Below are positions 1,693-49,283 of a stretch of 64,000 nucleotides of DNA, piece by piece. This DNA comes from Escherichia phage vB_EcoM_PTE-Eco09. The stretch lies in sequence record PQ306574.1. The stretch is one strand, 5' to 3'. Both the position numbers and the translations under genes were made by a program. A model generated the notes under the pieces. The model searched no databases. It was not told the DNA's origin and was given only the letters and a program-made list of their open reading frames with translations. The stretch's first letter is position 1. Every line of letters starts with the position of its first letter.

Positions 1693-4635
1693 TTAATTCT
1701 TTTTAAGTTCCGCTAGTTCAGCTTTAACGGCTTTCAATTCTTCGCTCATTTCCTGAAACGCCTTAATTAAAAGAGCGTTGACAGCGGAGTTAGAAATTGT
1801 TAAGATCTCTTCTGGATTATCTGGATCGCCGATCTTAGAAGTTGTTACGGCTTCCGGCAATTCTTTTTCAAGATCCTGAGCAATAATACCAACTTCATGA
1901 GCAATGACAGTACGGTCGGTTAAAGATTTAACCTTGTCATAGGTGTATACCGTCAAGCGATTAACTTTATCGGTTGCATTCTCTTTATACTCTTCCTTGT
2001 TGATTTTAAGGCGAGCATCAGAACGAATATACACATCGTTAAAGTTACCATTGCGACCAGCTTGGAAATCACCGGAGGCGTTAAAGTCAAAGTTTGTGGT
2101 ATGAATATGAAGACGTGCCATAGCATTAGTAATAACACCACTAGGAACGTGTACACCCATTGCTGCGATGTGGTCGAAACCCCATTTGGTCGCTTTCCAT
2201 ACGTTATATGCGGAAGTTTGAGCATTAGGACAATCAACCAATAAGCCAGCAGCGCGAGTTTTCCATTCTGACCATGCACCACCTTGTACTTCTCCGCGAA
2301 TCAGGCCATTACCATCACCGGATACAGTGCCAGATTCCAACTGGATCATTTTATCCGCAAATTTCCACGCCTGGGCTTGTTTCTGACCACGGAAGCGAAT
2401 AACACCAGCATCATCGCAGTACATCAAGCCTAACTCTAAACCGTTTGGATCTCTAAACCAGATGTGCTTATTGCCAGTGCGTTTAAACTCAATATCAGCA
2501 CCGTTCAGGGTAATATTACCGCCAGTGTGAATTGCTTTAGGCTTAACAGTACCATTAATGCCAAACTCGATTAATTCAGTACCCGGACCACCCGCACGTT
2601 GAGTATACCAATGCCAGCCGCTTTCATCAGCACATTCAAATACTTGTTTACGAGCATCAGCGCCCCATGCACGAATATTGAAACTAGAAGTAGCTGTACC
2701 CTTACCCCAGCGAATCAGACCAGCAGATTCCAAATCACCGAAGAATTTAGTTTTAATCGCACCAGTTGCTAAAGTACGTTCAGTGGTGAAGTGAGCACCT
2801 TTACTATCTTCAAGCTGTATAACGTTATCACGAGCGTTATTGCTATCGCCCCAATGACTCAAACGGAAATAGTCGCGGGATTGTCCAGCACCAGCATCAA
2901 ATGTTAAATATTGGCCTTTAATGTATGTGTTTCCAGCAAAACGAGCAGCACGACTTGCACGTTCTAAGACTAATGCACCTTCTTTACCATCACCACCCAA
3001 AGTAACATTACCGCTACCCAGATTGTAAGTGAATGGACGATAGCCGTTCCAACCACCAAATTTATCATTTTCGGCAGTAGACAGAAGATATACGTTTTGA
3101 CCATCATTACGCCAGAATGCACCATAGTTACCGTAAATCATACGGAATGCATCACTGTTAGCAGCTACATATTGACCATTGGTGTATACAATTTTTGTTT
3201 TTCCTGTAGTCAAATTTACTTGTCCACTACCTTCCAAATCAAATGAGTTAGCACCAACATCATTACGCCACACAAAACCATCACTAGTACCATCCGCATG
3301 ACCGATATAACCACTACGTTGGTTTTTACCATCACGACGATCCCACCACGCCATATATGCAGCTTGACCAGTCTGTCGATGTAAAGTCATCGCATTACCA
3401 CCACCGTGCAATTCCATTTTACCAGTAATTACATATCCTTTATAATTACCCGGTATTGCACTATTAGAATCAATTCTAATAACTTCTGTAGAATCTGTAG
3501 CACCAGTAGCAAGACGATATACAGCACCCTGAACGGTTTCATGCCAGGTCATTTCATTATAGTTACTACGGAATTTACGAATATATTTTCGTCCAGTACC
3601 CCTATCATTACTCAAGTGAACAATATCATAACTGTTTTGTGTGTTATCGTCAAAACTCAACACACCTCGTTTGTTTTCGGTGTTGAAAAGAGTTACAGCA
3701 CGACCGCCAATAACATTATCACCAGCAGGACGTTCAGCAACAAAATCTGGAACGTCATGAACTACCAGATTAACACCAACACTTTTACCAAATTCAACAA
3801 TAACGTTATCAGTGTAACGCTGATATTTCACATAGATATCATAGTTATCACCAGAAGTATTAACAGCCAAAACATCAAATGATTTGTTTGTATTTCGGCG
3901 ATATGCAATAACGTTAACACCTTTAGGGCGACCATTTCCACTGCGAATAACAATTTCTACAATATCAACTTGATCGTATGCAGTAACGTTATATCCGTTA
4001 CCGCCATGAATACGGAAAAATACGCTAAGACCGTTTTGTGGAATCATTGCAGTTGCTAATTTAAAATAGCCTTCAACGATATCACTAGGAGATGTAGCAA
4101 GTTTAACGTTCTTAACAAACATACGGTCAACTTCTTGTTTGCTATAGACGTTCAATTCTCCTGGAGTTGGTTTATCACCTTCGTGATACATTTTATAGCT
4201 AAATGCTTTTTGACCTTCTCTATTATAGCCATAGGTTTCAACACGAGATCCAGCAGACGCATAACGGAAAGTAAATCCGCGACCGTGCGCTTTACCGGCA
4301 GAATGAGGAACGTTAAGAGTTAGATCCCTGAGTCCATCTTGACCATTGGTACGGAAAGCACCAAAGTAGTTAAGATCTCTCGCTGTCTGGTCTTCCAAAT
4401 AGTTAGCTGTTTTACTTAAGATATAATTATTACCTTTAACCTTACCCGCCATTGTAACATCGCGGTCATACACCGGAGGACAACTTAAATTGATAATATC
4501 ACCGGAATCATTTTTAGTAAGAAGATATTGATCCGCAAGGTTGATTGCCAATTCCCCCGGATTCATCGTACTAGCATCCGGTTTACGACCTTTAGTGCTA
4601 GTGCGTTTAAATTGGATTCTGCTTAAATCTGCCAT
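1693..4635 (-). CDS. 37: long tail fibre distal subunit gp37 with C-terminal intramolecular-chaperone (peptidase S74-like) domain
   Basis: 980 aa; N-terminus MADLSRIQFKR…GELAINL matches T4 gp37 N-terminus; C-terminal ~110 aa carry SDARLK…GIIAQDL…coiled-coil typical of self-cleaving chaperone domains of endosialidase/T5 pb1 type. Confidence 0.85.
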   Translation of the reverse strand: MADLSRIQFKRTSTKGRKPDASTMNPGELAINLADQYLLTKNDSGDIINLSCPPVYDRDVTMAGKVKGNNYILSKTANYLEDQTARDLNYFGAFRTNGQDGLRDLTLNVPHSAGKAHGRGFTFRYASAGSRVETYGYNREGQKAFSYKMYHEGDKPTPGELNVYSKQEVDRMFVKNVKLATSPSDIVEGYFKLATAMIPQNGLSVFFRIHGGNGYNVTAYDQVDIVEIVIRSGNGRPKGVNVIAYRRNTNKSFDVLAVNTSGDNYDIYVKYQRYTDNVIVEFGKSVGVNLVVHDVPDFVAERPAGDNVIGGRAVTLFNTENKRGVLSFDDNTQNSYDIVHLSNDRGTGRKYIRKFRSNYNEMTWHETVQGAVYRLATGATDSTEVIRIDSNSAIPGNYKGYVITGKMELHGGGNAMTLHRQTGQAAYMAWWDRRDGKNQRSGYIGHADGTSDGFVWRNDVGANSFDLEGSGQVNLTTGKTKIVYTNGQYVAANSDAFRMIYGNYGAFWRNDGQNVYLLSTAENDKFGGWNGYRPFTYNLGSGNVTLGGDGKEGALVLERASRAARFAGNTYIKGQYLTFDAGAGQSRDYFRLSHWGDSNNARDNVIQLEDSKGAHFTTERTLATGAIKTKFFGDLESAGLIRWGKGTATSSFNIRAWGADARKQVFECADESGWHWYTQRAGGPGTELIEFGINGTVKPKAIHTGGNITLNGADIEFKRTGNKHIWFRDPNGLELGLMYCDDAGVIRFRGQKQAQAWKFADKMIQLESGTVSGDGNGLIRGEVQGGAWSEWKTRAAGLLVDCPNAQTSAYNVWKATKWGFDHIAAMGVHVPSGVITNAMARLHIHTTNFDFNASGDFQAGRNGNFNDVYIRSDARLKINKEEYKENATDKVNRLTVYTYDKVKSLTDRTVIAHEVGIIAQDLEKELPEAVTTSKIGDPDNPEEILTISNSAVNALLIKAFQEMSEELKAVKAELAELKKN

Positions 4636-15987: not shown

Positions 15988-16015
15988 TTGACATGCTTAT
16001 GTGGTAATGTATAAT
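15988..16015 (+). promoter_or_regulatory. sigma70-like early promoter with conserved leader
   Basis: TTGACA-N16-TATAAT then GCACACATCGAAACA…GGAGG leader. Confidence 0.5.
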
Positions 16016-16045
16016 GCACACATCGAAACAATGGAGGATAAAAAT

Positions 16046-17260
16046 ATGTTAGTACGTCAAGCGCATGAAATTGAATGGACTAAGGAGAAACATAATTGTA
16101 GAGCGAAAAGCCCAACAGATTTTTATGGTAAAATTTTAGAAATATGTAAAACAGAAAATTTAGTTTTTGTCGGCTTTGTTGGGGAATGGGAAGGAAACAA
16201 AACAAAAATAAAACTTATCTGCGAACATGGTCATGAATGGATATGTTCGATAGATAAATTTGTAAGTAAAGGAACAAGATGTTCTCATAAACAATGTAAA
16301 GGTAAACGAATATCTAAAAAATTGTCTATATCCGAAACGGAATACAAAACGAGAATTTTAGAAATATGTGAAACTGAAAATCTAATTTTCTTAGGTTTTG
16401 TTGGTGAATGGAAAGGGTGTGATACTAAAATTCGCATAAAATGCAAATACGGTCATGAATGGGATGTATCTATATATAGCTTCACAAAAATGAATACCAG
16501 ATGCCCTACATGCGCAGGACAGAACAGGACAAAAGACGAATACAAAACGAGAATTTTAGAAATATGTGAAACTGAAAATATAATTTTCTTAGGTTTTGTT
16601 GGTGAATGGAAAGGATGCCGCACAAAAATAAAACTTAGCTGCAAACACGGTCATGAATGGATATCTTCCATATTATGTTTTGTGTATCAAAATACTCGCT
16701 GTCCTGTATGTGTTGGTAGATTGTCTATCGACGATAGAATGATACAGATTAATCAAGTTTGCAATTCTTTAGGTTATGTAATAATTAAGATCCACGAAGA
16801 ATGGAAAAACACAGAAACTAAAATTGATGTTAAATGTTTATGTGATTATATATGGACAACAACAATACATAGAGTCATACATGGGACTACAGGTTGCAGA
16901 AAGTGTGCTACACATGGATACAATACAAAAAAATCGGGGACTCTTTATATACAGAAATTAACCAACGATGATTCCTTTGTTGGTGTGAAATTTGGAATAA
17001 CAAACAGAGACACGAATGAACGAATGAAAAACCAATCATCAAAGTCTAAATTCGACCATGAGATCTTTTATGAATTGACTTTACAAGACGGTCAAAAGAT
17101 CTTAGAATTAGAGAACAAGATCAAGAAAGCGATGAAAGGTAAAACTTCCTATATCTCAAAAGAAGATATGCCGGATGGCTGGACCGAAACAGTAGCGCCG
17201 TCTGAATTGAGCACTATCATGTATATCGTAAAAACTTTTGAAAAAGAGTTGACAGCGTAA
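16046..17260 (+). CDS. hypothetical protein with four tandem Cys/His-rich repeats and a C-terminal T5orf172/GIY-YIG-like domain
   Basis: Four ~70-aa repeats (TRILEICETEN-IFLGFVGEWKG…K-GHEW…TRCP-C) then GTLYIQKL…VGVKFGITNRD…ERMK; start set at ATG after GGAGG. Confidence 0.45.
   Translation: MLVRQAHEIEWTKEKHNCRAKSPTDFYGKILEICKTENLVFVGFVGEWEGNKTKIKLICEHGHEWICSIDKFVSKGTRCSHKQCKGKRISKKLSISETEYKTRILEICETENLIFLGFVGEWKGCDTKIRIKCKYGHEWDVSIYSFTKMNTRCPTCAGQNRTKDEYKTRILEICETENIIFLGFVGEWKGCRTKIKLSCKHGHEWISSILCFVYQNTRCPVCVGRLSIDDRMIQINQVCNSLGYVIIKIHEEWKNTETKIDVKCLCDYIWTTTIHRVIHGTTGCRKCATHGYNTKKSGTLYIQKLTNDDSFVGVKFGITNRDTNERMKNQSSKSKFDHEIFYELTLQDGQKILELENKIKKAMKGKTSYISKEDMPDGWTETVAPSELSTIMYIVKTFEKELTA
16111..16740. 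repeat. in-frame tandem DNA repeats (~210 bp units, 3-4 copies)
   Basis: Units beginning near 16120, 16333 and 16540 are highly similar; copies 2 and 3 are near-identical over about 80 nt. Confidence 0.7.
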
Positions 17261-22540: not shown

Positions 22541-22708
22541 ATGACCAAATTAAAATGTGTTGCTGTAGATTTTGAGCTAGCTGATAGCTTTGTTGTTGGT
22601 GATGAATATGATGCTCGACATGATGGGACTTGCTACTACGTCGAGGATGAATACGGTGTAGAATGGGCGATTCTTCCTGATGATAAATGTTTTGAGGTTG
22701 TCGGATAA
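22541..22708 (+). CDS. hypothetical small protein (55 aa)
   Basis: ATG with SD GTGAGG downstream of promoter; track ORF extends upstream without start signals. Confidence 0.45.
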   Translation: MTKLKCVAVDFELADSFVVGDEYDARHDGTCYYVEDEYGVEWAILPDDKCFEVVG

Positions 22709-22881
22709 TGGCTACTGTATGGTTATTGATTGCAATAAGCAATTCAATGTATAATTACGGAAATATGTCAAGCATTGAGTTTGCAACAAAGCAGGATTGC
22801 GTTAAAGCTCGCGAGATTATCCGCGAAGACAATAAACGCTTTATGAATCTATATTGCGTTGAAAAACAAAAGGTGAACTAA
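22708..22881 (+). CDS. small hydrophobic-N-terminus protein, paralog 1 (57 aa)
   Basis: MATVWLLIAISNS…CVEKQKVN; start overlaps upstream stop (TAATG); hand-derived. Confidence 0.4.
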   Translation: MATVWLLIAISNSMYNYGNMSSIEFATKQDCVKAREIIREDNKRFMNLYCVEKQKVN

Positions 22882-23048
22882 TGGCTACATTATGGTTATT
22901 GCTTTCCGTTAGCGTAGGCGTATATAATAAAGGAACTGTTACCAGCGTAGAGTTTTCATCATATCAAAATTGTTTTGAAGCTGTGCAGGAATTGCAGCAG
23001 GATAGCGAAATAAACAGAAATACTAAGTTCTTTTGTGTTAAAAAGTGA
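22881..23048 (+). CDS. small hydrophobic-N-terminus protein, paralog 2 (55 aa)
   Basis: MATLWLLLSVSVG…FCVKK; paralogous to previous ORF; start overlaps upstream stop. Confidence 0.4.
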   Translation: MATLWLLLSVSVGVYNKGTVTSVEFSSYQNCFEAVQELQQDSEINRNTKFFCVKK

Positions 23049-23117: not shown

Positions 23118-23765
23118 ATGAACTTACAAAAACTACATGACGCAATCATAGAAAAAGCAAAGACGAGAGGAACCGTTGAAGGGTATAAGGAAACACATCA
23201 TATTTTACCGCGATCTATGGGTGGCGGTGATGAAGTTGATAACCTGATTGAGTTGACAGCAAAAGAACATTTCGTGATTCATCATCTGCTAGCAAAAATT
23301 CATGGTGGACCTATGGCACAAGCATTTGGTATGATGTGTTTAGCAAAAAATGCGAAGACCAATAAAAGAGATTATATTGTTTCGTCTAGGGTATATGAAC
23401 AAGCTAGGGTACTTATCTCTGAACAAAGAAAGGGCAAACCTATGAAAGAAGAAACGCGAAGAAAGATTAGCGAATCTTCGAAAGGTGTGTTGAAATCAGA
23501 AGAGACAAAAGCTAAAATGCGTAAGCCAAAAACAAAGGAGCACGCGTTAAACATTTCAAAAGCTAGAATGGGCAGTAAAAATCCTATGTTTGGGAAACCA
23601 TCGCCAACTAAAGGAATACCACATAGTGAGGAAATGAGAAAGCTGATTGCACAAAGGACAAAGGAAGCAACAATGGCAGATCCTTGTCCGCATTGCGGTA
23701 AAATTACCAATAAAGGCAATTCTCTACGATGGCACTTTGATAACTGTAAAATGAGGAATATGTGA
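23118..23765 (+). CDS. HNH homing endonuclease with NUMOD-like repeats, in the nrdA-nrdB intergenic position (as mobE in T4)
   Basis: HNH motif (HHILPRSMGGGDEVDNLIELTAKEH-HH); repeated KxExxxK(I/M)(S/R) NUMOD-like modules. Confidence 0.7.
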   Translation: MNLQKLHDAIIEKAKTRGTVEGYKETHHILPRSMGGGDEVDNLIELTAKEHFVIHHLLAKIHGGPMAQAFGMMCLAKNAKTNKRDYIVSSRVYEQARVLISEQRKGKPMKEETRRKISESSKGVLKSEETKAKMRKPKTKEHALNISKARMGSKNPMFGKPSPTKGIPHSEEMRKLIAQRTKEATMADPCPHCGKITNKGNSLRWHFDNCKMRNM

Positions 23766-24932
23766 ATGGGAAATACGGTATTTAATCGTGAACACGTTGA
23801 TATTATGAATGAACCGATGTTTCTGGGCAGCGGTTTAGGTATCGCTCGTTATGACATTCAGCGTCATCAAGTATTTGAAGAATTAATTGAAAAATCTCTG
23901 TCATTTTTTTGGCGCCCCGAAGAAATTTCACTTGCAACCGACCGCATTCAATATCTTAATATGGGTGACGTTGAAAAGCGTTTCTTTACTGAAAACTTGA
24001 AGTATCAGACATTACTTGATTCTATTCAAGGTCGCGCACCGTCCGCAGCATTTGGTCCAATTGTATCTGATCCAACTCTCGATACATGGTTGCAAACATG
24101 GACATTCAGCGAAACGATTCATAGCCGAAGCTATACACACATTATGCGTAACTGTTTCATTGATCCGGCTAGTGAGTTCGACCAGATCATCGATAACCCT
24201 GCTATCATGAAGCGAGCGGAATCTATCGGGAAATATTATGATGATGTTCTTTATTGGATTCGTAAGTATGAGAATGCAAAAGAAGATCTCCGCTATTGGG
24301 AAGAACGAGACGACCAGACAGCATTAGATGATGCAAGAAGATTTTTTGAAGATACAAAACGAGATCTGATGGCTTCGATTTATCTGTGTGCACACTGCGT
24401 AAATGCACTGGAAGCAATCCGTTTTTATGTGTCCTTTGCATGTACTTTCAGCTTTGCCGAACGTGGTTTACTGGAAGGTAACGCGAAGATCATGAAATTT
24501 ATTGCGCGTGATGAACAACTTCACTTAAAAGGAACACAATACATTATTCGTCAATGGCAAACGGGGGTTGATGGTGATGAGTGGAAACAGATTGCGGAAG
24601 AACTTGAAGGCGAAGCAACGAAAATCTTTCTGGATGTTGTCGAGCAAGAAAAAGAATGGGTAGACCACCTATTCGCAATGGGGGCAATTCCTAACCTGTC
24701 ACCGGAAATTCTGAAAACCTATGTAGAATACCTGGCAGATTCCCGTATGCGTGCTGCCGGACTGAAAAGCCCGTTTAGTGTTCGTCGTCATCCGTTACCG
24801 TGGATGCGTAAATGGTTGAACTCTGACGAAGTACAGAATGCAGCGCAGGAAGTAGAGATTATGTATCTGGTATCTCAGGTTAATACCGATTTAACAGACG
24901 ACGACTACAACCGATTCGGGAAATATCTATGA
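23766..24932 (+). CDS. nrdB: ribonucleotide reductase small subunit (class Ia beta)
   Basis: 388 aa, same length as T4 NrdB; di-iron/tyrosyl radical protein motifs (SETIHSRSYTHI, CTFSFAERG, ARDEQLH); continuous ORF. Confidence 0.95.
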   Translation: MGNTVFNREHVDIMNEPMFLGSGLGIARYDIQRHQVFEELIEKSLSFFWRPEEISLATDRIQYLNMGDVEKRFFTENLKYQTLLDSIQGRAPSAAFGPIVSDPTLDTWLQTWTFSETIHSRSYTHIMRNCFIDPASEFDQIIDNPAIMKRAESIGKYYDDVLYWIRKYENAKEDLRYWEERDDQTALDDARRFFEDTKRDLMASIYLCAHCVNALEAIRFYVSFACTFSFAERGLLEGNAKIMKFIARDEQLHLKGTQYIIRQWQTGVDGDEWKQIAEELEGEATKIFLDVVEQEKEWVDHLFAMGAIPNLSPEILKTYVEYLADSRMRAAGLKSPFSVRRHPLPWMRKWLNSDEVQNAAQEVEIMYLVSQVNTDLTDDDYNRFGKYL

Positions 24933-25452: not shown

Positions 25453-25481
25453 TTGACAATCGGATCGGGGTATAGCATAAT
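25453..25481 (+). promoter_or_regulatory. early promoter with conserved leader
   Basis: TTGACA-N17-CATAAT-GCACCC-ATCGAAACGGAGG. Confidence 0.5.
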
Positions 25482-25505
25482 GCACCCATCGAAACGGAGG
25501 AACAT

Positions 25506-26698: not shown

Positions 26699-26705
26699 TA
26701 AGGTG

Positions 26706-26729
26706 GGCGGGAGAAATCCCGCCTTTGTT
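26706..26729 (+). terminator. terminator-like hairpin
   Basis: GGCGGGA-GAAA-TCCCGCC followed by TTTGTTG. Confidence 0.5.
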
Positions 26730-26748
26730 GTGACGTGAGGAAAGGATA

Positions 26749-27150
26749 ATGATTAATGAGCTAATAGAAAACTATGGATTCGTTAAATATTCATGTTTAG
26801 AGTGTAAAGATGGTGACGTGATTCTACCGCCTCAGAAGAACCGTTTAAATGTTCTTTACGCTATTTCGGTTGATGATGAACTGGTATACATTGGTCAGAC
26901 TGTCAATCTCAGAAAGCGGATCAATTATTAACGGACTAGCATTAACAGACAAACACCAACAGCGGATACTCGCAAGAGTAAGAATATTCATAAGGCGCTA
27001 GAGGAAGGTAAGACAGTAACATTCTATTACCGCCAGTGCTTTGAGTTATATATTGAGAATCCAACGGGTAAAGATATTATAAGCACTGCCGATATCGAAG
27101 AACCTGTTTTGATCACCAAATTTAAACCAGAATGGAACACAAATTATGTC
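26749..27150 (+). pseudogene. GIY-YIG nuclease-like reading frame interrupted by one in-frame TAA (at about 26929-26931)
   Basis: N-part VLYAISVDDELVYIGQTVNLRKRINY, then TAA, then same frame stays open with GIY-YIG-like C-part (…ELYIEN…EEPVLITKFKPEWN); 3' end overlaps rnlA start. Confidence 0.4.
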
Positions 27151-28315
27151 AACAAAAGAAAACAACAAAAAAGTTTTAGCATTGTTCAAAAATCTGATGG
27201 CACTATGTGACGGATCTGATACGTTCTATTACAAAGATGAAATTACGGCGATGCAAACCCGTATGCGCATTTTTAGCTATCTGTACTTGAGCAAACCTGA
27301 AATGTGGAATAAACCAGATGCGTTAGAGTGTCGCGGGATCATGTTTGAAATTGACGATAAAGGTCGTCCGGTCCGCATCGCATCTCGTCCTATGGAGAAG
27401 TTTTTTAATTTGGGTGAGAATGATCGCGCTCGCTTTAAGCCGGAAGATGTGGAAATGGTCATGGACAAAATGGACGGTAGTCTAGTAAGCACATACATTG
27501 ATAACGGCTATGTTCAGTTGAAGTCTAAAGCGGCCTTGTACTCAAGCCAGGCAGAGAGAGCAAACGGTCTTCTGTATTCAGAGAAGTATGCGGATCTACG
27601 CGCTAAGATTGCTGATATTGGGTCTGATTATACTTTCAACTTTGAATATACAGCGCCCAGCAACCGAATTGTTGTAGAATATTCTGAACCGTCGCTAACA
27701 CTTCTGAATGTACGCCATAACGTCACAGGAGAGTACGTACCGCATCAAATGCTATTTTCTGACGCAATCCTACGTCCTCATCTGGTAAATGCGTTACAGG
27801 TTGATTCAGCGCGTTTTAGCAATATTCTTGATGAAGTTCGGACCGCAGAAGGTATCGAAGGAATTGTTGCACGCACTAAAGACGGTCAAATGTTCAAAGT
27901 GAAGAGTGAATGGTATATTGGTGTGCATAACATTAAAAACACATCGATGTTTCCTAATAACCTGATCTACTATGTCGTAGAAAGCGAAACCGATGATTTG
28001 CGTGCTGCATATGAAGGCGAACCGGAAGCACTGGAACGAATCGAGCTATTCGAGGAAGCATTCAGGTCTATTCTTCGCAATGCCTTCACGACAGCAACAG
28101 AATTTTATAACGCACACGCGGGAGAAGACAGAAAGACATATGCATCAAATGCGACTATCGAATCACGTAAACATGGTGATGCACAAGCATATATTTTCAT
28201 GTGTCTGATGATTGCATTTGATGGTCTTGATTATGACCGTATTCTGGATTCAATGAAAACTTACTATCTACGGAATTATAAGAAACTTATTCCGGCTGAT
28301 AAGATTGATTGGTAA
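27146..28315 (+). CDS. rnlA: RNA ligase 1
   Basis: 389 aa; nucleotidyltransferase motif I lysine in KMDGSL; size and neighbourhood as T4 gene 63. Confidence 0.8.
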   Translation: MSTKENNKKVLALFKNLMALCDGSDTFYYKDEITAMQTRMRIFSYLYLSKPEMWNKPDALECRGIMFEIDDKGRPVRIASRPMEKFFNLGENDRARFKPEDVEMVMDKMDGSLVSTYIDNGYVQLKSKAALYSSQAERANGLLYSEKYADLRAKIADIGSDYTFNFEYTAPSNRIVVEYSEPSLTLLNVRHNVTGEYVPHQMLFSDAILRPHLVNALQVDSARFSNILDEVRTAEGIEGIVARTKDGQMFKVKSEWYIGVHNIKNTSMFPNNLIYYVVESETDDLRAAYEGEPEALERIELFEEAFRSILRNAFTTATEFYNAHAGEDRKTYASNATIESRKHGDAQAYIFMCLMIAFDGLDYDRILDSMKTYYLRNYKKLIPADKIDW

Positions 28316-38579: not shown

Positions 38580-39292
38580 AACAAAAATTAATATTCTGCA
38601 ACTTTGACGGATCGGGAATAATGGGGCTAGAATGGGCTAAAGCAGGTCATAAGGTAGTCTGCTTTAATGCGGATGACGCCGACCACGGTACATACAAAAA
38701 GTATAATACCAGATTTGAACATCCAAACATTACCTATGTAAACACATGGATTGATTTGAATTGGCTGGAAAGAGCAATGGACCTTGAATGGGGGAAACCG
38801 GATATTATCTTTGCATTCCCACCGTGCACCAATTTAGCTGTTAGTGGCGCTGCGCACTTTGAACGAAAGAAACTAGAACAAGGACCATTGATTCAAGTTC
38901 ATGATGTAAGGGCAGCTAAAATAACCGCTTATTTGGGTGAATGGCTAGGAGTTCCCTACATGATAGAGAATCCTGTAAGCGTTATCTCTAGTATGTGGCG
39001 TAAGCCTGATTACATGTTCCATCCGTGGGAATATGGCGGTTATTTGCCGGAAGATGATAAACATCCTACTTTTCCTGAGTATATCGCCGCCCGTGATATG
39101 TACCCGAAAAAGACTTGCTTATGGACCGGACAAGGCTTTATAATGCCAGAAAAGAAACCGTTGCAGATTAATAAAGGGTACAGTAAACAGCATTCTAAGC
39201 TAGGCGGGAAAGGAACGAAAACAAAGACTATCAGGTCACTTACCCCGCGAGGATTCGCAAAGGCAGTATTTGAAGCCAATAAGGATCTATGA
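38576..39292 (+). CDS. DNA C5-cytosine methyltransferase-like protein (minimal, 238 aa)
   Basis: Motif order and spacing of C5-MTase catalytic domain: FDGSGIMG (motif I-like), AFPPC (PCQ-like with Cys), IENPV (ENV-like); too short for a canonical target recognition domain. Confidence 0.45.
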   Translation: MKQKLIFCNFDGSGIMGLEWAKAGHKVVCFNADDADHGTYKKYNTRFEHPNITYVNTWIDLNWLERAMDLEWGKPDIIFAFPPCTNLAVSGAAHFERKKLEQGPLIQVHDVRAAKITAYLGEWLGVPYMIENPVSVISSMWRKPDYMFHPWEYGGYLPEDDKHPTFPEYIAARDMYPKKTCLWTGQGFIMPEKKPLQINKGYSKQHSKLGGKGTKTKTIRSLTPRGFAKAVFEANKDL

Positions 39293-43984: not shown

Positions 43985-44914
43985 TTAGAATAACCTAGTA
44001 ATAGAGTTGACTATCCTACCACCAACACCCTGTAATCTTGACAATGCACTACCAGCAAAGGTCAACGAACTTTTTTTACCCTCACCAACAGTATTTTGAA
44101 TAAGATTTATTGCCTTATCCTCAATCCATTCTCGCGCGGCTTGCTCTCCTACTGCACCAGTTTGCATAGAACGATATGCGAAAGTAACATCGAATGTTGT
44201 GATCTCGTTGTTATTTTCATAACTCAATTCAGGAGAACTAACACCAACTGGAATACATCCACTAAACATCATAATTGTATGTGGTACACCCATTCGGTTA
44301 TGTAAGTTAACCTGAATATCGGCTTCAACGTCAACAGGAAGCGCACGAAGCCCTGTAACGGGGTCTTCTACTGAGTTAACCCAATCCTGCATCGCACGGT
44401 AATTTGATGCGCTAGCGTCCATTCTAAAGCTCAACACAATCGGATCAAAATCACGTCCGGTAATTCGAATGTTTGGCGCATTGTGGTTACGGTCCATTTC
44501 ATAATTCAATCTGTTTTCTGGAACCTTAACAGCATACACCAGAAGACCGCTTGTCTTATATGCCATATTGAACCAATCCATGACATATGTACCAACTTCA
44601 AATTGCCCCAAAAGAGATTGAACTACTCGTGATGACATTGCACCCAACAAATATTTTTTAACACCGGACGAGCTAACAGCTTTACGCACACCACCAATAG
44701 CAAGATTTGCTACCGCGTCAGTATAATCCCCACGAGTAATACCAAAATAATCATTTAGTTTACCTGGTATAATATCATATACAGCACCACCAAAATTTTC
44801 TAGAATTTGCTGCGTCTTGCTACTAGGAACGGTGGCAAACGCCACCGAAAATAGATTAGAACGCTGGAAGTCTAGATTAGCGGCTTGTTCATTGAAATCG
44901 TTTAAATCAAACAT
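43985..44914 (-). CDS. 54: baseplate tail-tube initiator gp54
   Basis: 309 aa; assignment by size and synteny (first of six-gene baseplate block next to alt). Confidence 0.65.
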   Translation of the reverse strand: MFDLNDFNEQAANLDFQRSNLFSVAFATVPSSKTQQILENFGGAVYDIIPGKLNDYFGITRGDYTDAVANLAIGGVRKAVSSSGVKKYLLGAMSSRVVQSLLGQFEVGTYVMDWFNMAYKTSGLLVYAVKVPENRLNYEMDRNHNAPNIRITGRDFDPIVLSFRMDASASNYRAMQDWVNSVEDPVTGLRALPVDVEADIQVNLHNRMGVPHTIMMFSGCIPVGVSSPELSYENNNEITTFDVTFAYRSMQTGAVGEQAAREWIEDKAINLIQNTVGEGKKSSLTFAGSALSRLQGVGGRIVNSITRLF

Positions 44915-45972
44915 TATAATTGACTCCCAAATACAGTACCACGGGAAAGAGTAAGAATCTCCCTGAACGATACTTCCAAAACAAAAGTGCTCGGTAAATT
45001 AGGAGATATTGCAAGCCCACCAAATTTACCATCTGGGGATTTATCAAGTCTTACGTTAGAAATTTGCGCTGGTCCGAAAACATCACTTCTTCCCTCATAT
45101 TCAGAACGTTTTCCAAAGTTTGATATCATCCATATAGTAGGATTCGATACAGTGGTTACGTTTGTCAAAAAGTCAGTTATTCCCTCAAATACAGTACCCG
45201 TTGTATCAGCACCTTCTGGAACCGTTTTAGAAAGAATTGTCTTTTTATACCATGCGTCAACTTCCGCTTTTAATTGTTTTGCGGTACTGGAAATACCACT
45301 AGACCCATAAGATAACTCTACAAACGTCTCATAGATAATCAGGATATTTCGTAGGTCTTCAATACTGCGTGGGGTTAAGTTCCAAACATAGTTTTTAGTT
45401 CTAGGATCTGCCCCAGCATACATGCTACGAGCGGTATTATAGATTTGCTCGTTTTTATCCGCAAGATAACCACCCGTCAAACTTTCCAACCCACCAAATA
45501 CTGCGGTCGATGCCATAGTAGATAATGCGCCAGAAATAGTGCCACCGCCACGCGTAACGAGAGATTCACCAACATCATTAAACTTGTGACTTACCGCATC
45601 AACATCTGATTGACTACGAGGAAGTAGAATATTAGCAACGGCCTCACGTTCAAATCCAACTCCCCTATTACTCGTATATTCTGCCTTACCACCATTAGAA
45701 ATAGATAGACCAAACCCCTTGATCGTGTTTCCTTTATTTCTGAAATCTCGTAGAGAGTCGGTAACACGACTTTTATAATCATAGGCAGTAAACAACAAGC
45801 CGTTATTATAAAGGTCATTTATGTATATACCAGATGAATCATTGCCGCTAGCTCGTTCAGATGGAAATTGAGCGGTTAAAGTTGACTTGTCTTGTTTTTG
45901 AGTAAAACCAGCAGACGCTTTGACGCCTTTGTTAAAGGCGTCTTTAGCATCATCCAAAATTTGAATTTTCAT
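44914..45972 (-). CDS. 48: baseplate tail-tube cap gp48
   Basis: 352 aa; synteny and size. Confidence 0.65.
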   Translation of the reverse strand: MKIQILDDAKDAFNKGVKASAGFTQKQDKSTLTAQFPSERASGNDSSGIYINDLYNNGLLFTAYDYKSRVTDSLRDFRNKGNTIKGFGLSISNGGKAEYTSNRGVGFEREAVANILLPRSQSDVDAVSHKFNDVGESLVTRGGGTISGALSTMASTAVFGGLESLTGGYLADKNEQIYNTARSMYAGADPRTKNYVWNLTPRSIEDLRNILIIYETFVELSYGSSGISSTAKQLKAEVDAWYKKTILSKTVPEGADTTGTVFEGITDFLTNVTTVSNPTIWMISNFGKRSEYEGRSDVFGPAQISNVRLDKSPDGKFGGLAISPNLPSTFVLEVSFREILTLSRGTVFGSQL

Positions 45973-45973
45973 A

Positions 45974-47659
45974 TTAAACTATTCCTTTCTGTAATAGACC
46001 GGGAGAAGGTGTACTAGTTTGAGGTCTGGTTATCTGAACCGTTCTATTATTGTTATAGATCTGCGTGTTTGCAACGTTGGCAGTATTAGTAACAGTATTA
46101 TCGTTTCTAATATTTTGTAGCTGACCTTGTTCTATAGACTTAGCTTGTTTTGCTGTATCGGTTTCATCCGGTGGCGGTGGAGTAACAGCAGGTGCGTTCT
46201 TAGTAATACGAATCTTGTCGTATTGGTCAAGAAGTTCTTTAATTTTCTGTCTGTCTGTAGAAAGAAGGTCTGGATTGTCCAACACTTTACGCTGTTCATT
46301 AACATCATTATCAAGCGCAGCTAATTTATCTGGAAGAGTACCCGGTTTTACGGTCTTTAACATAGAGATATTTCGAACCATGTCACCCTCAACGTCAATA
46401 GTGATATTGCTACTCTTTCTATAGGCATCATCACTAACAGATTTTAGCTCTTTCATCCTAGTAACTTCATATTTTTCCTGTTCAGTTAAAATAGGCTCTA
46501 CTTGCATACTTGCCATACTGCTATATTGCTGATTAGCAAGTTTTGCTTGAGTCTGCATACCTTTCTGAATTTCTTCTTCTTTCTTCATACGGGCGTACAA
46601 CTCTTTTTCTCGTTCATCCATTTTAACACCGCTACGCGCTTGTGCTTGTTTTAAAGCACCATATTCCAGAGTATCAGCCAACGAACCCATACCAGGAATA
46701 GAACGAAGTACCGACGCAAGACCTTTAGTTATTATTCTATCAAGCTGAAAAAACGCATCAACCAACACATCAGCCAAACCACTAACAAGCTCGGTTACAA
46801 GTTCACCATATTCTTTATTTTCCCAATAGTTTTGTATACTTTCAACGGAAGTTAAAACTTTATCTAATGTAGAACCCCAATTTCCTGCCTTCCTCATAAA
46901 CTCGCCAAAGTTCTCGTCAAACTGCTTACTCCAGTATCTAAAATGAATCATTAGAGTATCAACAGCAACAACGATCCCCAGAAGAATAGCTCCCCATTTG
47001 ACAACCTCAAACATTGCGGTCACCGTCATTTTAAACAGCATAGAGAATATCTTGTTGGATACACCAACAGTCTCTTTAAATCCACCGCGAACCGCTTTGA
47101 GTAGCAGTTGCATATTATTGTCACGGTCGCTATTCTTATCTTTCTTTTTCTTTTTATTATCGTCTTTAGGCTTCTTAGGTAACGTAGGGTAGTTATCGTT
47201 ATTTTGTTGTTCCGGTACACTCGGCAAAACTGGTTGCGGTGATGGCATAGTTTGTTCCGGCTGTTTATCATCCTTGATGGCATTTTCGATTGCATCGAGA
47301 CCACTGGTGATCTTAGAAACGACGCTGAATCGACGTTCCATCATGACACCAAAACCGCGTAATTTCTCATTCATTTGAGAAGAAAAGCTATTCAACTTCT
47401 GCAATTCTTCATAGGTTTTTTGAGTATTGCCAGCGGTAGATTGTGTGTTTTCTGCCGTTAATTCGTTGGCTGCGGTGTTATCCTCCACCGCTCCAATAAC
47501 TTCATTAGATTTTTGTTCTACTGTCTCCGCCACCAATTCACTTGCAGCTTGAAGATTATCAATAGAATCAAGTTTATCTAATTTGTTAAGTTTATCAATC
47601 GGGTTTTCTTCCGCTTCCTTGCGCATCCCGCGAAATGATGTTAATGCGTCATTATTCAT
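45974..47659 (-). CDS. 29: baseplate hub subunit gp29
   Basis: 561 aa; internal TM segment and low-complexity Lys-rich stretch; synteny and size. Confidence 0.65.
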   Translation of the reverse strand: MNNDALTSFRGMRKEAEENPIDKLNKLDKLDSIDNLQAASELVAETVEQKSNEVIGAVEDNTAANELTAENTQSTAGNTQKTYEELQKLNSFSSQMNEKLRGFGVMMERRFSVVSKITSGLDAIENAIKDDKQPEQTMPSPQPVLPSVPEQQNNDNYPTLPKKPKDDNKKKKKDKNSDRDNNMQLLLKAVRGGFKETVGVSNKIFSMLFKMTVTAMFEVVKWGAILLGIVVAVDTLMIHFRYWSKQFDENFGEFMRKAGNWGSTLDKVLTSVESIQNYWENKEYGELVTELVSGLADVLVDAFFQLDRIITKGLASVLRSIPGMGSLADTLEYGALKQAQARSGVKMDEREKELYARMKKEEEIQKGMQTQAKLANQQYSSMASMQVEPILTEQEKYEVTRMKELKSVSDDAYRKSSNITIDVEGDMVRNISMLKTVKPGTLPDKLAALDNDVNEQRKVLDNPDLLSTDRQKIKELLDQYDKIRITKNAPAVTPPPPDETDTAKQAKSIEQGQLQNIRNDNTVTNTANVANTQIYNNNRTVQITRPQTSTPSPGLLQKGIV

Positions 47660-48177
47660 GATAGGAGATCCAATATGTTAATGCCACCATAGATAGTACC
47701 TTCTGGAGTATCTAAGGCAACGGTTTTTCTTAATCCTGTAGCCCAATTCATAATAAACGCTGGGAATTTATGAAAGTCTACACTAGGATCGTGATAGTGA
47801 TTGCTTAGGAAATTTGCATCATCATGTGTATATTCAGAAGAGAGCATAGGAGGCGTGAACTTGAATTTCTCGCCATTAAATTCAAACTCCGATTCTGTAC
47901 AGATATAAACATCATCCAATCGCAAACCATCTTTTTCTTCTAGGCATTTGCCATTAAAAGAGCATAAGTGAAGCATAACATATTCTGCTTCGGCTGCATT
48001 TAGTCCTGGGTGAATGGAATCAAGTAGAATTTTTAAAGTATCTTCACAGCTACGAACATCTTTTAATAATCTGTGCTGTTTGATCCCCATTTTAGGGATC
48101 TTGATATGTTTCCCGTTAACGGTAATATTTTTAACAGGAACAACAAATTTTAGAGATGGTTTAGTATCAGTCATCAT
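47656..48177 (-). CDS. 28: baseplate hub distal subunit gp28
   Basis: 173 aa; synteny and size. Confidence 0.6.
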   Translation of the reverse strand: MMTDTKPSLKFVVPVKNITVNGKHIKIPKMGIKQHRLLKDVRSCEDTLKILLDSIHPGLNAAEAEYVMLHLCSFNGKCLEEKDGLRLDDVYICTESEFEFNGEKFKFTPPMLSSEYTHDDANFLSNHYHDPSVDFHKFPAFIMNWATGLRKTVALDTPEGTIYGGINILDLLS

Positions 48178-49283
48178 ATTTTACCTTCAAATTGTACATC
48201 TTTCAAAATCTCACTATGACTAAACATGTGAATATGTGTTAATGATTGTTCTCGACAAATTTCATGAACAACTTCATCGACAATAAAATCGGTGCGAATT
48301 TGCTGTTTAGCATCAAAGAATCTTAGCTTTTGTGCTGGACGTAGAGAGAAATTACCATGACACACCGCGCTGGCATAGGAATCAAATTGTCCAAAAGTTG
48401 CCAGTTTAGAACCTTCAAGATACGCGTTTTTATATGTCAAATTACCATAAGCGCCACCATGAGCAAAATGAGCTATGTTATCACCATTACCCACTACAAT
48501 CTTGTTATACTGCTTCGTGATGAAATCAATTGTTGTGTAAGTGACATTAGCGAATGAGTTTTTTGTTACCGCATTACTCTTAGTATCCCACTCAAAGTTA
48601 AACACCATCAAATATTCGCTCATATCCATGAATTGTCCTGTTAGGGTAGGCTCGGTGACGATAGCAGGAATTGGATCACCCTGCATCAGTAGTTTATGAT
48701 CGGTGATCTTGATCCCGTCAAAGTCCTCCCAACAATAAACGAACGATTCGTTGTCTACACTCTGACCATGCGTTCTCACATATTCAAAATAATCGTTAAC
48801 GGTGTTCACCCACGGACACTTAGGAATGAATACGTTTACTCCCGTAATGGCAGGTTTCCACAATGGAACATTTTTATAGATCGCGTCTATCATACTGGTG
48901 ATGTTATTCACCGCGTTAGTGTCGGTAGCGCGAGAAAACTTTAGATTCAGCGTTTCATGGTAGCTCTTTAACTGGAAGGTTATTATATTATCGGCCTTAG
49001 AGTCAACCGTCACATTACTATGCGCGATACCATATATCCGGTTGAATACTTGTTCAGTATTAGCCGTTGATAATGAAATTTGTATAATCTCTGTTCCTGC
49101 TAATTTCGTATGAAGCGCCTTAGAATCATATATTTGTAACAATCCTTCATTGACACCACGAAGAGAATCACGTAATGTCATTGTAATGAAGGTAGCACCC
49201 AATTCAACAAATCTATTTTCCAAAAATGCTTCATAATCTTGATATAGCTTTATAGAGACGTTAGGAAATCCGGGTCTTTGCAT
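48174..49283 (-). CDS. 27: baseplate hub subunit gp27
   Basis: 369 aa; synteny and size. Confidence 0.65.
   Translation of the reverse strand: MQRPGFPNVSIKLYQDYEAFLENRFVELGATFITMTLRDSLRGVNEGLLQIYDSKALHTKLAGTEIIQISLSTANTEQVFNRIYGIAHSNVTVDSKADNIITFQLKSYHETLNLKFSRATDTNAVNNITSMIDAIYKNVPLWKPAITGVNVFIPKCPWVNTVNDYFEYVRTHGQSVDNESFVYCWEDFDGIKITDHKLLMQGDPIPAIVTEPTLTGQFMDMSEYLMVFNFEWDTKSNAVTKNSFANVTYTTIDFITKQYNKIVVGNGDNIAHFAHGGAYGNLTYKNAYLEGSKLATFGQFDSYASAVCHGNFSLRPAQKLRFFDAKQQIRTDFIVDEVVHEICREQSLTHIHMFSHSEILKDVQFEGKI

Follow-up and report, generated by a model that had tools for sequence, protein, structure and literature searches.

Within the 64-kb stretch of phage DNA analysed here (the window), an open reading frame with the motifs of a GIY-YIG nuclease is interrupted by a single in-frame TAA, which raises the question of which gene this is and whether its stop marks a loss of function, a recoded gene or an error in the sequence. 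The frame opens with an ATG at 26749 and runs for 60 sense codons ending ...VLYAISVDDELVYIGQTVNLRKRINY before the TAA at 26929-26931; after the stop, the same frame contains 92 further sense codons (26932-27207) and is closed by a TGA at 27208-27210. The initial annotation had reported an ORF at 26749-26931 followed by approximately 90 open codons, which is confirmed by these counts, and had placed the end of the feature at 27150, which proves to be 60 nt short of the true end at 27210. The last 65 nt of the feature overlap the gene rnlA, whose ATG is at 27146. The probability that a random frame stays open over 92 codons is approximately 0.002, as estimated from the window composition (40% G+C).

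Identity and layout of the interrupted gene

The split feature is, with essential certainty, denA, the orthologue of the GIY-YIG enzyme T4 endonuclease II, in which codon 61 has changed from TAC to TAA. Early in infection, endonuclease II, a small GIY-YIG nuclease, introduces nicks and cuts into host DNA that contains cytosine. A stretch of 701 nt around the site shares 95-99% identity with 58 GenBank phage genomes, all of which belong to RB49-like coliphages (Krischvirus), and the corresponding 462-nt ORF in those genomes is annotated as denA or endonuclease II, with rnlA as the next gene. The source genome is identified as that of an RB49-like T4-type coliphage of the genus Krischvirus (Straboviridae).

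Protein comparisons were performed with a "repaired" protein, namely the window frame with a tyrosine put at codon 61. It matches DenA of phage kvi (QHR71570.1) at 100% identity and RB49 DenA (NP_891795.1) at 99%, and its homologues are found by tblastn in 1,150 phage records, including those of T2, T6 and T4-type phages at approximately 50% identity. A phmmer search of the PDB returns T4 endonuclease II (2WSH) as the sole match (E=2e-38, residues 3-134), and the stretch RKRINYYRT is identical between the two proteins. The 92 residues encoded after the stop match 2WSH on their own (E=1e-16). In the profile phrog_1111 ('endonuclease'), the N-terminal half corresponds to positions 2-62 (E=1.8e-17) and the C-terminal half to positions 64-138 (E=1.5e-26); the halves are collinear, which places the stop at position 63 of one endonuclease profile, and the repaired whole protein matches this profile with E=4e-52. 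By comparison, the Pfam GIY-YIG model scores the repaired protein weakly (19.9 bits versus a cut-off of 22.6) and covers only its N-terminal half, and Pfam yields no GIY-YIG match for the C-terminal half alone. Taken alone, Pfam would have misled by falsely refuting the homology, whereas the PDB and PHROG searches are clear. The proposal in the initial annotation that C-half-like GIY-YIG sequence follows the stop is thus borne out by formal alignment, and its description of a GIY-YIG nuclease split by one TAA was correct, but the gene was not recognised as denA, a conserved gene for host-DNA degradation.

The gene lies in its usual place, before rnlA. Just 5' of denA and 3' of orf132, a sequence scan reveals an intrinsic-terminator-like hairpin, GGGCGGGAGAAATCCCGCC, with a T-run (26705..26724, + strand), and phages G2494, G2248 and TB34 carry a terminator annotation for this element. 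A Shine-Dalgarno-like sequence, GAGGAAAGG (26737..26745, +), can be read 3 nt 5' of the ATG, and Ec_Makalu_002 has an annotated RBS at the corresponding site. Codons 1-60 (26749..26928, +), the sole translatable part here, comprise the N-terminal region and the GIY (VLY37), YIG (Y47-I-G49) and R57 motifs. The ochre stop at codon 61 (26929..26931, +) has an A at 26931, where relatives carry C (TAC; TAT in one), i.e., Tyr61. Codons 62-153 (26932..27207, +), now untranslated, contain the middle region (K76), C97, the catalytic E118, N130 and the C-terminal tail, and the natural TGA stop (27208..27210, +) matches the annotated denA end in RB49, kvi and others. The following gene, rnlA (RNA ligase 1; 27146..28315, +; annotated as rnlA in RB49), is intact, and the window RnlA from an alternative start at 27197 onward is 100% identical to that of phage kaaroe. 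The position of denA between the nrdB region and rnlA is the same in T2 and in Providencia and Erwinia phages, and the annotated neighbours agree with the order nrd-denA-rnlA in RB49, kvi, kaaroe, T2, and the Providencia and Erwinia phages.

The window protein was aligned with seven diverse DenA homologues (from T2, from Klebsiella, Providencia, Erwinia, Cronobacter and Aeromonas phages, and from RB49). Y37, Y47, G49, R57, E118 and N130 are encoded in the window denA and are invariant across the eight sequences; E118 and N130 lie beyond the stop, where they are encoded and not translatable. The column of codon 61, four residues past the invariant Arg57, is Tyr in all seven homologues and TAA in the window. 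This position of the catalytic core is occupied by Tyr, and by His in some other GIY-YIG enzymes. The window denA is a member of the family by descent, but its ORF is interrupted, and it is classified as a null allele or pseudogene.

A comparison with T4 endonuclease II (2WSH) reveals approximately 50% identity over residues 3-134, a common GIY/YIG/R57/Y61/E118/N130 layout and a shared genomic position between the nrdB region and rnlA. The two differ in that the window copy has a TAA at Tyr61, which leaves only 60 residues possible, and in that the Krischvirus protein carries a C-terminal tail of approximately 17 aa that overlaps rnlA. The DenA genes of RB49 and kvi are the same gene at the same locus, and the difference is one base, with TAC in theirs and TAA in the window's. 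The tail itself varies in phage JSE, the denA of which (EU863408.1; L011 119-550) has a 1-nt length difference in an A-run near the 3' end; the frame shifts past residue 141 and gives a 143-aa product with an altered tail and an unaffected GIY-YIG domain, which shows that the C-terminal extension, where denA overlaps rnlA, is not essential or is only weakly constrained.

Rarity of the codon-61 change and selection on denA

Alignment with RB49 and kvi reduces the lesion to one C-to-A transversion at window position 26931, which converts TAC (Tyr61) to TAA. When denA was extracted from 16 relatives (15 GenBank phages spanning the genus and one IMG/VR contig), the codon was TAC in 15 and TAT in one. 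All ten metagenome or SRA contigs with an upstream orf132 protein identical to that of the window have TAC and a 153-aa denA, and a Tyr codon (TAC or TAT) is present in all 26 relatives read directly. Two of these contigs (L030 and L032; ERR15880673 and SRR12217750) differ from the window at three positions over 2.1 kb, of which 26931 is the only one inside denA. The exact TAC 81-mer is present in 28 GenBank records and the exact TAA 81-mer in none; exact-pattern scans of IMG/VR and JGI metagenome contigs find no TAA allele, and a protein index look-up has no record of the 60-aa product. The TAA allele is a singleton, as would be expected equally of a newly arisen mutation and of an error.

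Among 17 distinct Krischvirus denA alleles (codons 1-132), the pooled pN/pS is 0.044 and 31 of the 41 variable sites are third codon positions, which places denA under strong purifying selection within the genus. Such selection makes it a priori improbable that a null allele would last in natural circulation. Past the stop, a comparison of the window with kvi reveals no nonsynonymous differences, and this absence of decay in a gene under purifying selection indicates that the disruption is either very recent or not real.

The quality of the sequence can be judged from the neighbouring genes. A 49.8-kb stretch of kaaroe contains 76 annotated CDSs, 68 of which have a counterpart in the window; 67 are intact, in a single frame and free of stops, and denA is the sole broken gene. 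Against three relatives, the window has 20 private differences in 5.7 kb, and the 11 that are coding comprise 8 synonymous and 3 nonsynonymous changes, a pattern that resembles the signature of natural divergence and not that of random error. A separate cluster of 8 window-private substitutions (versus RB49, kvi and kaaroe) occupies 25 nt at 25462-25486, in the intergenic region between a pnk-like gene and the next small ORF, and resembles a small replaced patch more than point-mutation drift.

Several other features of the window were recorded. On the minus strand, the distal long-tail-fibre subunit (1696-4635) is only 62% identical to that of kaaroe, and the tail-tube initiator, baseplate subunit, tail-length regulator and hub subunits (43988-49181) are 54-87% identical, whereas the genes neighbouring both blocks are 98-100% identical; the two regions resemble mosaic blocks, presumably acquired when the phage recombined with a Krischvirus lineage that is more distant. 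A hypervariable slot between gene 32 (ssb) and frd encodes a 419-aa protein containing four CapR-homology/treble-clef zinc-ribbon repeats (16001-17260, +; Pfam PF21817, E=3e-31), which is only 37% identical to the kaaroe protein at the same position. Between nrdA and a homing endonuclease gene, two tandem small paralogous ORFs of 57 and 55 aa (22708-23048, +), which both start with MAT(V/L)WLL... and share approximately 40% identity, are conserved in kaaroe. The homing endonuclease gene itself (23118-23765, +) encodes a 215-aa free-standing HNH enzyme with a NUMOD3 motif (phrog_655, E=2e-55; Pfam NUMOD3) and lies directly 5' of nrdB (ATG at 23766). It is missing at the kaaroe site and occurs in only 7 phage records (JSE, FL15, AV108, SSG23, SFHK24 and phiS among them), a patchiness expected of a mobile homing-endonuclease gene.

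Origin of the stop codon

The stop is regarded as an unremarkable loss-of-function allele of very recent origin (or as a one-base error in the sequence) and not as a recoding signal. The best reading, which we consider probable, is a very recent TAC-to-TAA ochre mutation that gives a DenA-null phage. A freshly inactivated endonuclease was among the possibilities raised in the initial annotation, and it is supported by the single C-to-A change relative to otherwise identical intact alleles and by the lack of downstream decay. Because the rest of the gene is base-for-base equal to intact public alleles and the untranslated half is undecayed, the change would be very recent. Evasion of the PANGU and PUA-Cal-HAD defences through frameshift, missense or RBS mutations in denA has arisen repeatedly in T4 and T2; T4 with a denA null is viable, although the wild type out-competes it (bioRxiv 10.64898/2026.04.06.716658; 10.64898/2026.01.15.699771). 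This recurrence makes a spontaneous denA nonsense allele an expected and known kind of event.

It is less likely, although still worth weighing, that the phage truly has TAC (Tyr61) and an intact denA, the A at 26931 having entered the consensus as a single-base error or from a minority variant; a sequencing error was also among the possibilities in the initial annotation. The strong purifying selection on denA in the genus is consistent with this explanation, as are the identity of the remainder of the window gene to intact alleles and the uniqueness of the TAA allele, which is absent from the 58 GenBank relatives, IMG/VR, the JGI metagenomes and the protein index. However, the 67 other shared CDSs (approximately 49 kb) contain no frameshift or stop, and the mostly synonymous window-private substitutions indicate that the error rate of this sequence appears to be very low; a generally error-prone sequence is ruled out by the same two observations. 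A substitution outside a homopolymer also differs from the typical long-read error. Furthermore, T4 and T2 readily yield viable denA null mutants (bioRxiv 10.64898/2026.04.06.716658; 10.64898/2026.01.15.699771).

Functional readthrough and the other readings together account for very little of the probability. In the first of these, which is highly improbable, the full-length nuclease is still made by readthrough or suppression of the stop codon, through programmed recoding or through a phage or host suppressor tRNA. The frame downstream of the TAA is fully intact, and the TAA derives from a Tyr codon, so that a host with a tyrosine-inserting ochre suppressor would restore the exact wild-type protein; additionally, the TAA is followed by C, and a stop followed by C is a weaker context than UAAU. 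Nevertheless, termination in E. coli is most efficient at UAA, and hosts with an ochre suppressor are uncommon. The stop is also unconserved, with a sense codon in the 26 relatives read directly and in 28 further GenBank records, which leaves no room for an evolved recoding signal. Stop-codon readthrough, as entertained in the initial annotation, is not supported: the relatives carry a Tyr codon, the window lacks tRNA genes, and no structure follows the stop, as the 120 nt from that point are no more strongly folded than shuffled sequence (z = -0.54). A check for a suppressor tRNA gene elsewhere in the phage had likewise been suggested, and ARAGORN detects no tRNA gene in the 64-kb window; RB49, phi1 and JSE are tabulated with 0 tRNA genes (PMC2993671, Table 2). 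After the stop, there is no in-frame ATG, GTG or TTG before the TTG at 27109, and the C-terminal half thus cannot be made independently. Rho-dependent polarity on rnlA was considered and has no specific support, as the newly untranslated 214 nt are neither C-rich nor G-poor (C/G 0.63-1.07 versus a window median of 0.93).

Scarcely credible is a decaying free-standing GIY-YIG homing endonuclease (a Seg-like selfish element) or a functional two-piece nuclease. In its favour, the GIY-YIG motif is present, Seg homing endonucleases abound in T4-type phages, and the window has a genuine free-standing HNH homing endonuclease 3 kb upstream of denA. Seg-like enzymes, however, combine a GIY-YIG domain with a C-terminal DNA-binding module and are sporadic among close relatives, whereas this gene encodes a full-length, 153-aa orthologue of T4 endonuclease II with no added DNA-binding domain (NUMOD or similar). 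Nor is it patchy: all 58 Krischvirus records have it at this locus, and 1,150 phage records contain it. A split gene is rejected by the lack of an ATG, GTG or TTG for the C-terminal half before 27109 and by the absence of the split from all relatives.

Predicted consequences of a DenA-null allele

With a recent ochre mutation in denA, translation from the ATG at 26749 would halt after 60 residues, and the product would lack Tyr61, the middle DNA-recognition region (K76), the tetramer-interface C97, the metal-binding catalytic Glu118 and Asn130. T4 endonuclease II initiates host-DNA degradation and nucleotide salvage and acts as a tetramer, and its catalysis is abolished by E118A (PMC2764454). 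By analogy with the T4 endonuclease II mutants, the 60-aa fragment should be catalytically dead and the phage functionally DenA-null. The T4 and T2 work suggests that such an allele would be viable, with DenA dispensable but beneficial. The allele may have become fixed by drift through the bottleneck of plaque purification, or it may have been favoured on hosts with defences that detect chromosome degradation caused by the phage. A phage of this kind would be expected to break down less host DNA and to salvage nucleotides less well, at a modest cost in fitness, and generalized transduction might increase.

The laboratory denA nulls of T4 and T2 (nd28, and the frameshift and missense escapers) are comparable in that a premature stop falls in the same dispensable gene (PMC12115623; bioRxiv 10.64898/2026.04.06.716658; 10.64898/2026.01.15.699771), and the predicted outcome is likewise the absence of endonuclease II, reduced host-DNA degradation and a viable phage with a fitness cost. 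However, the laboratory nulls were selected and phenotyped in T-even phages with hmC-DNA, whereas the window allele is known from an RB49-like genome sequence alone. Krischvirus phages, whose DNA contains ordinary cytosine, are without hmC synthesis, denB, ndd and alc; denA is retained, as is a DNA methyltransferase, and the phages transduce plasmids (PMC12115623, PMC8056088). In a phage with cytosine DNA and without these functions, the role of DenA is less clear than in T4. The window contains a DNA methyltransferase gene at 38621-39289 (+; phrog_757, E=4e-83; 'Dcm' in kaaroe; no Pfam match at E<0.01). The methyltransferase has been suggested to shield RB49-like cytosine DNA from the phage's own DenA (PMC8056088), and this question would be moot in a DenA-null phage.

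It is rather doubtful, and less probable than a sequence error, that the TAA is a genuine, positively selected escape allele that evades defences of the PANGU and PUA-Cal-HAD type, which are triggered by chromosome degradation. If it were, it would be the first denA-null escape genotype outside laboratory selection, and in a cytosine-DNA relative of T4, and a side effect would be more intact host DNA for generalized transduction.

The gene and the class of null allele are both already known, so that novelty is low, and knowledge of the gene family is unchanged by this denA allele. The practical result is a correction of the annotation: the ORF and the open frame after it should be merged and labelled as a denA (endonuclease II) pseudogene or nonsense allele, and neither "60-aa hypothetical protein" nor "recoding candidate" is an appropriate label. 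Provided that the mutation is real, this would be a natural DenA-null phage in a plasmid-transducing genus that is already without denB, ndd and alc. The host DNA would then be expected to remain even more intact, which bears on the risk of transduction in phage therapy, and the phage might escape defences that sense degradation of the host genome.
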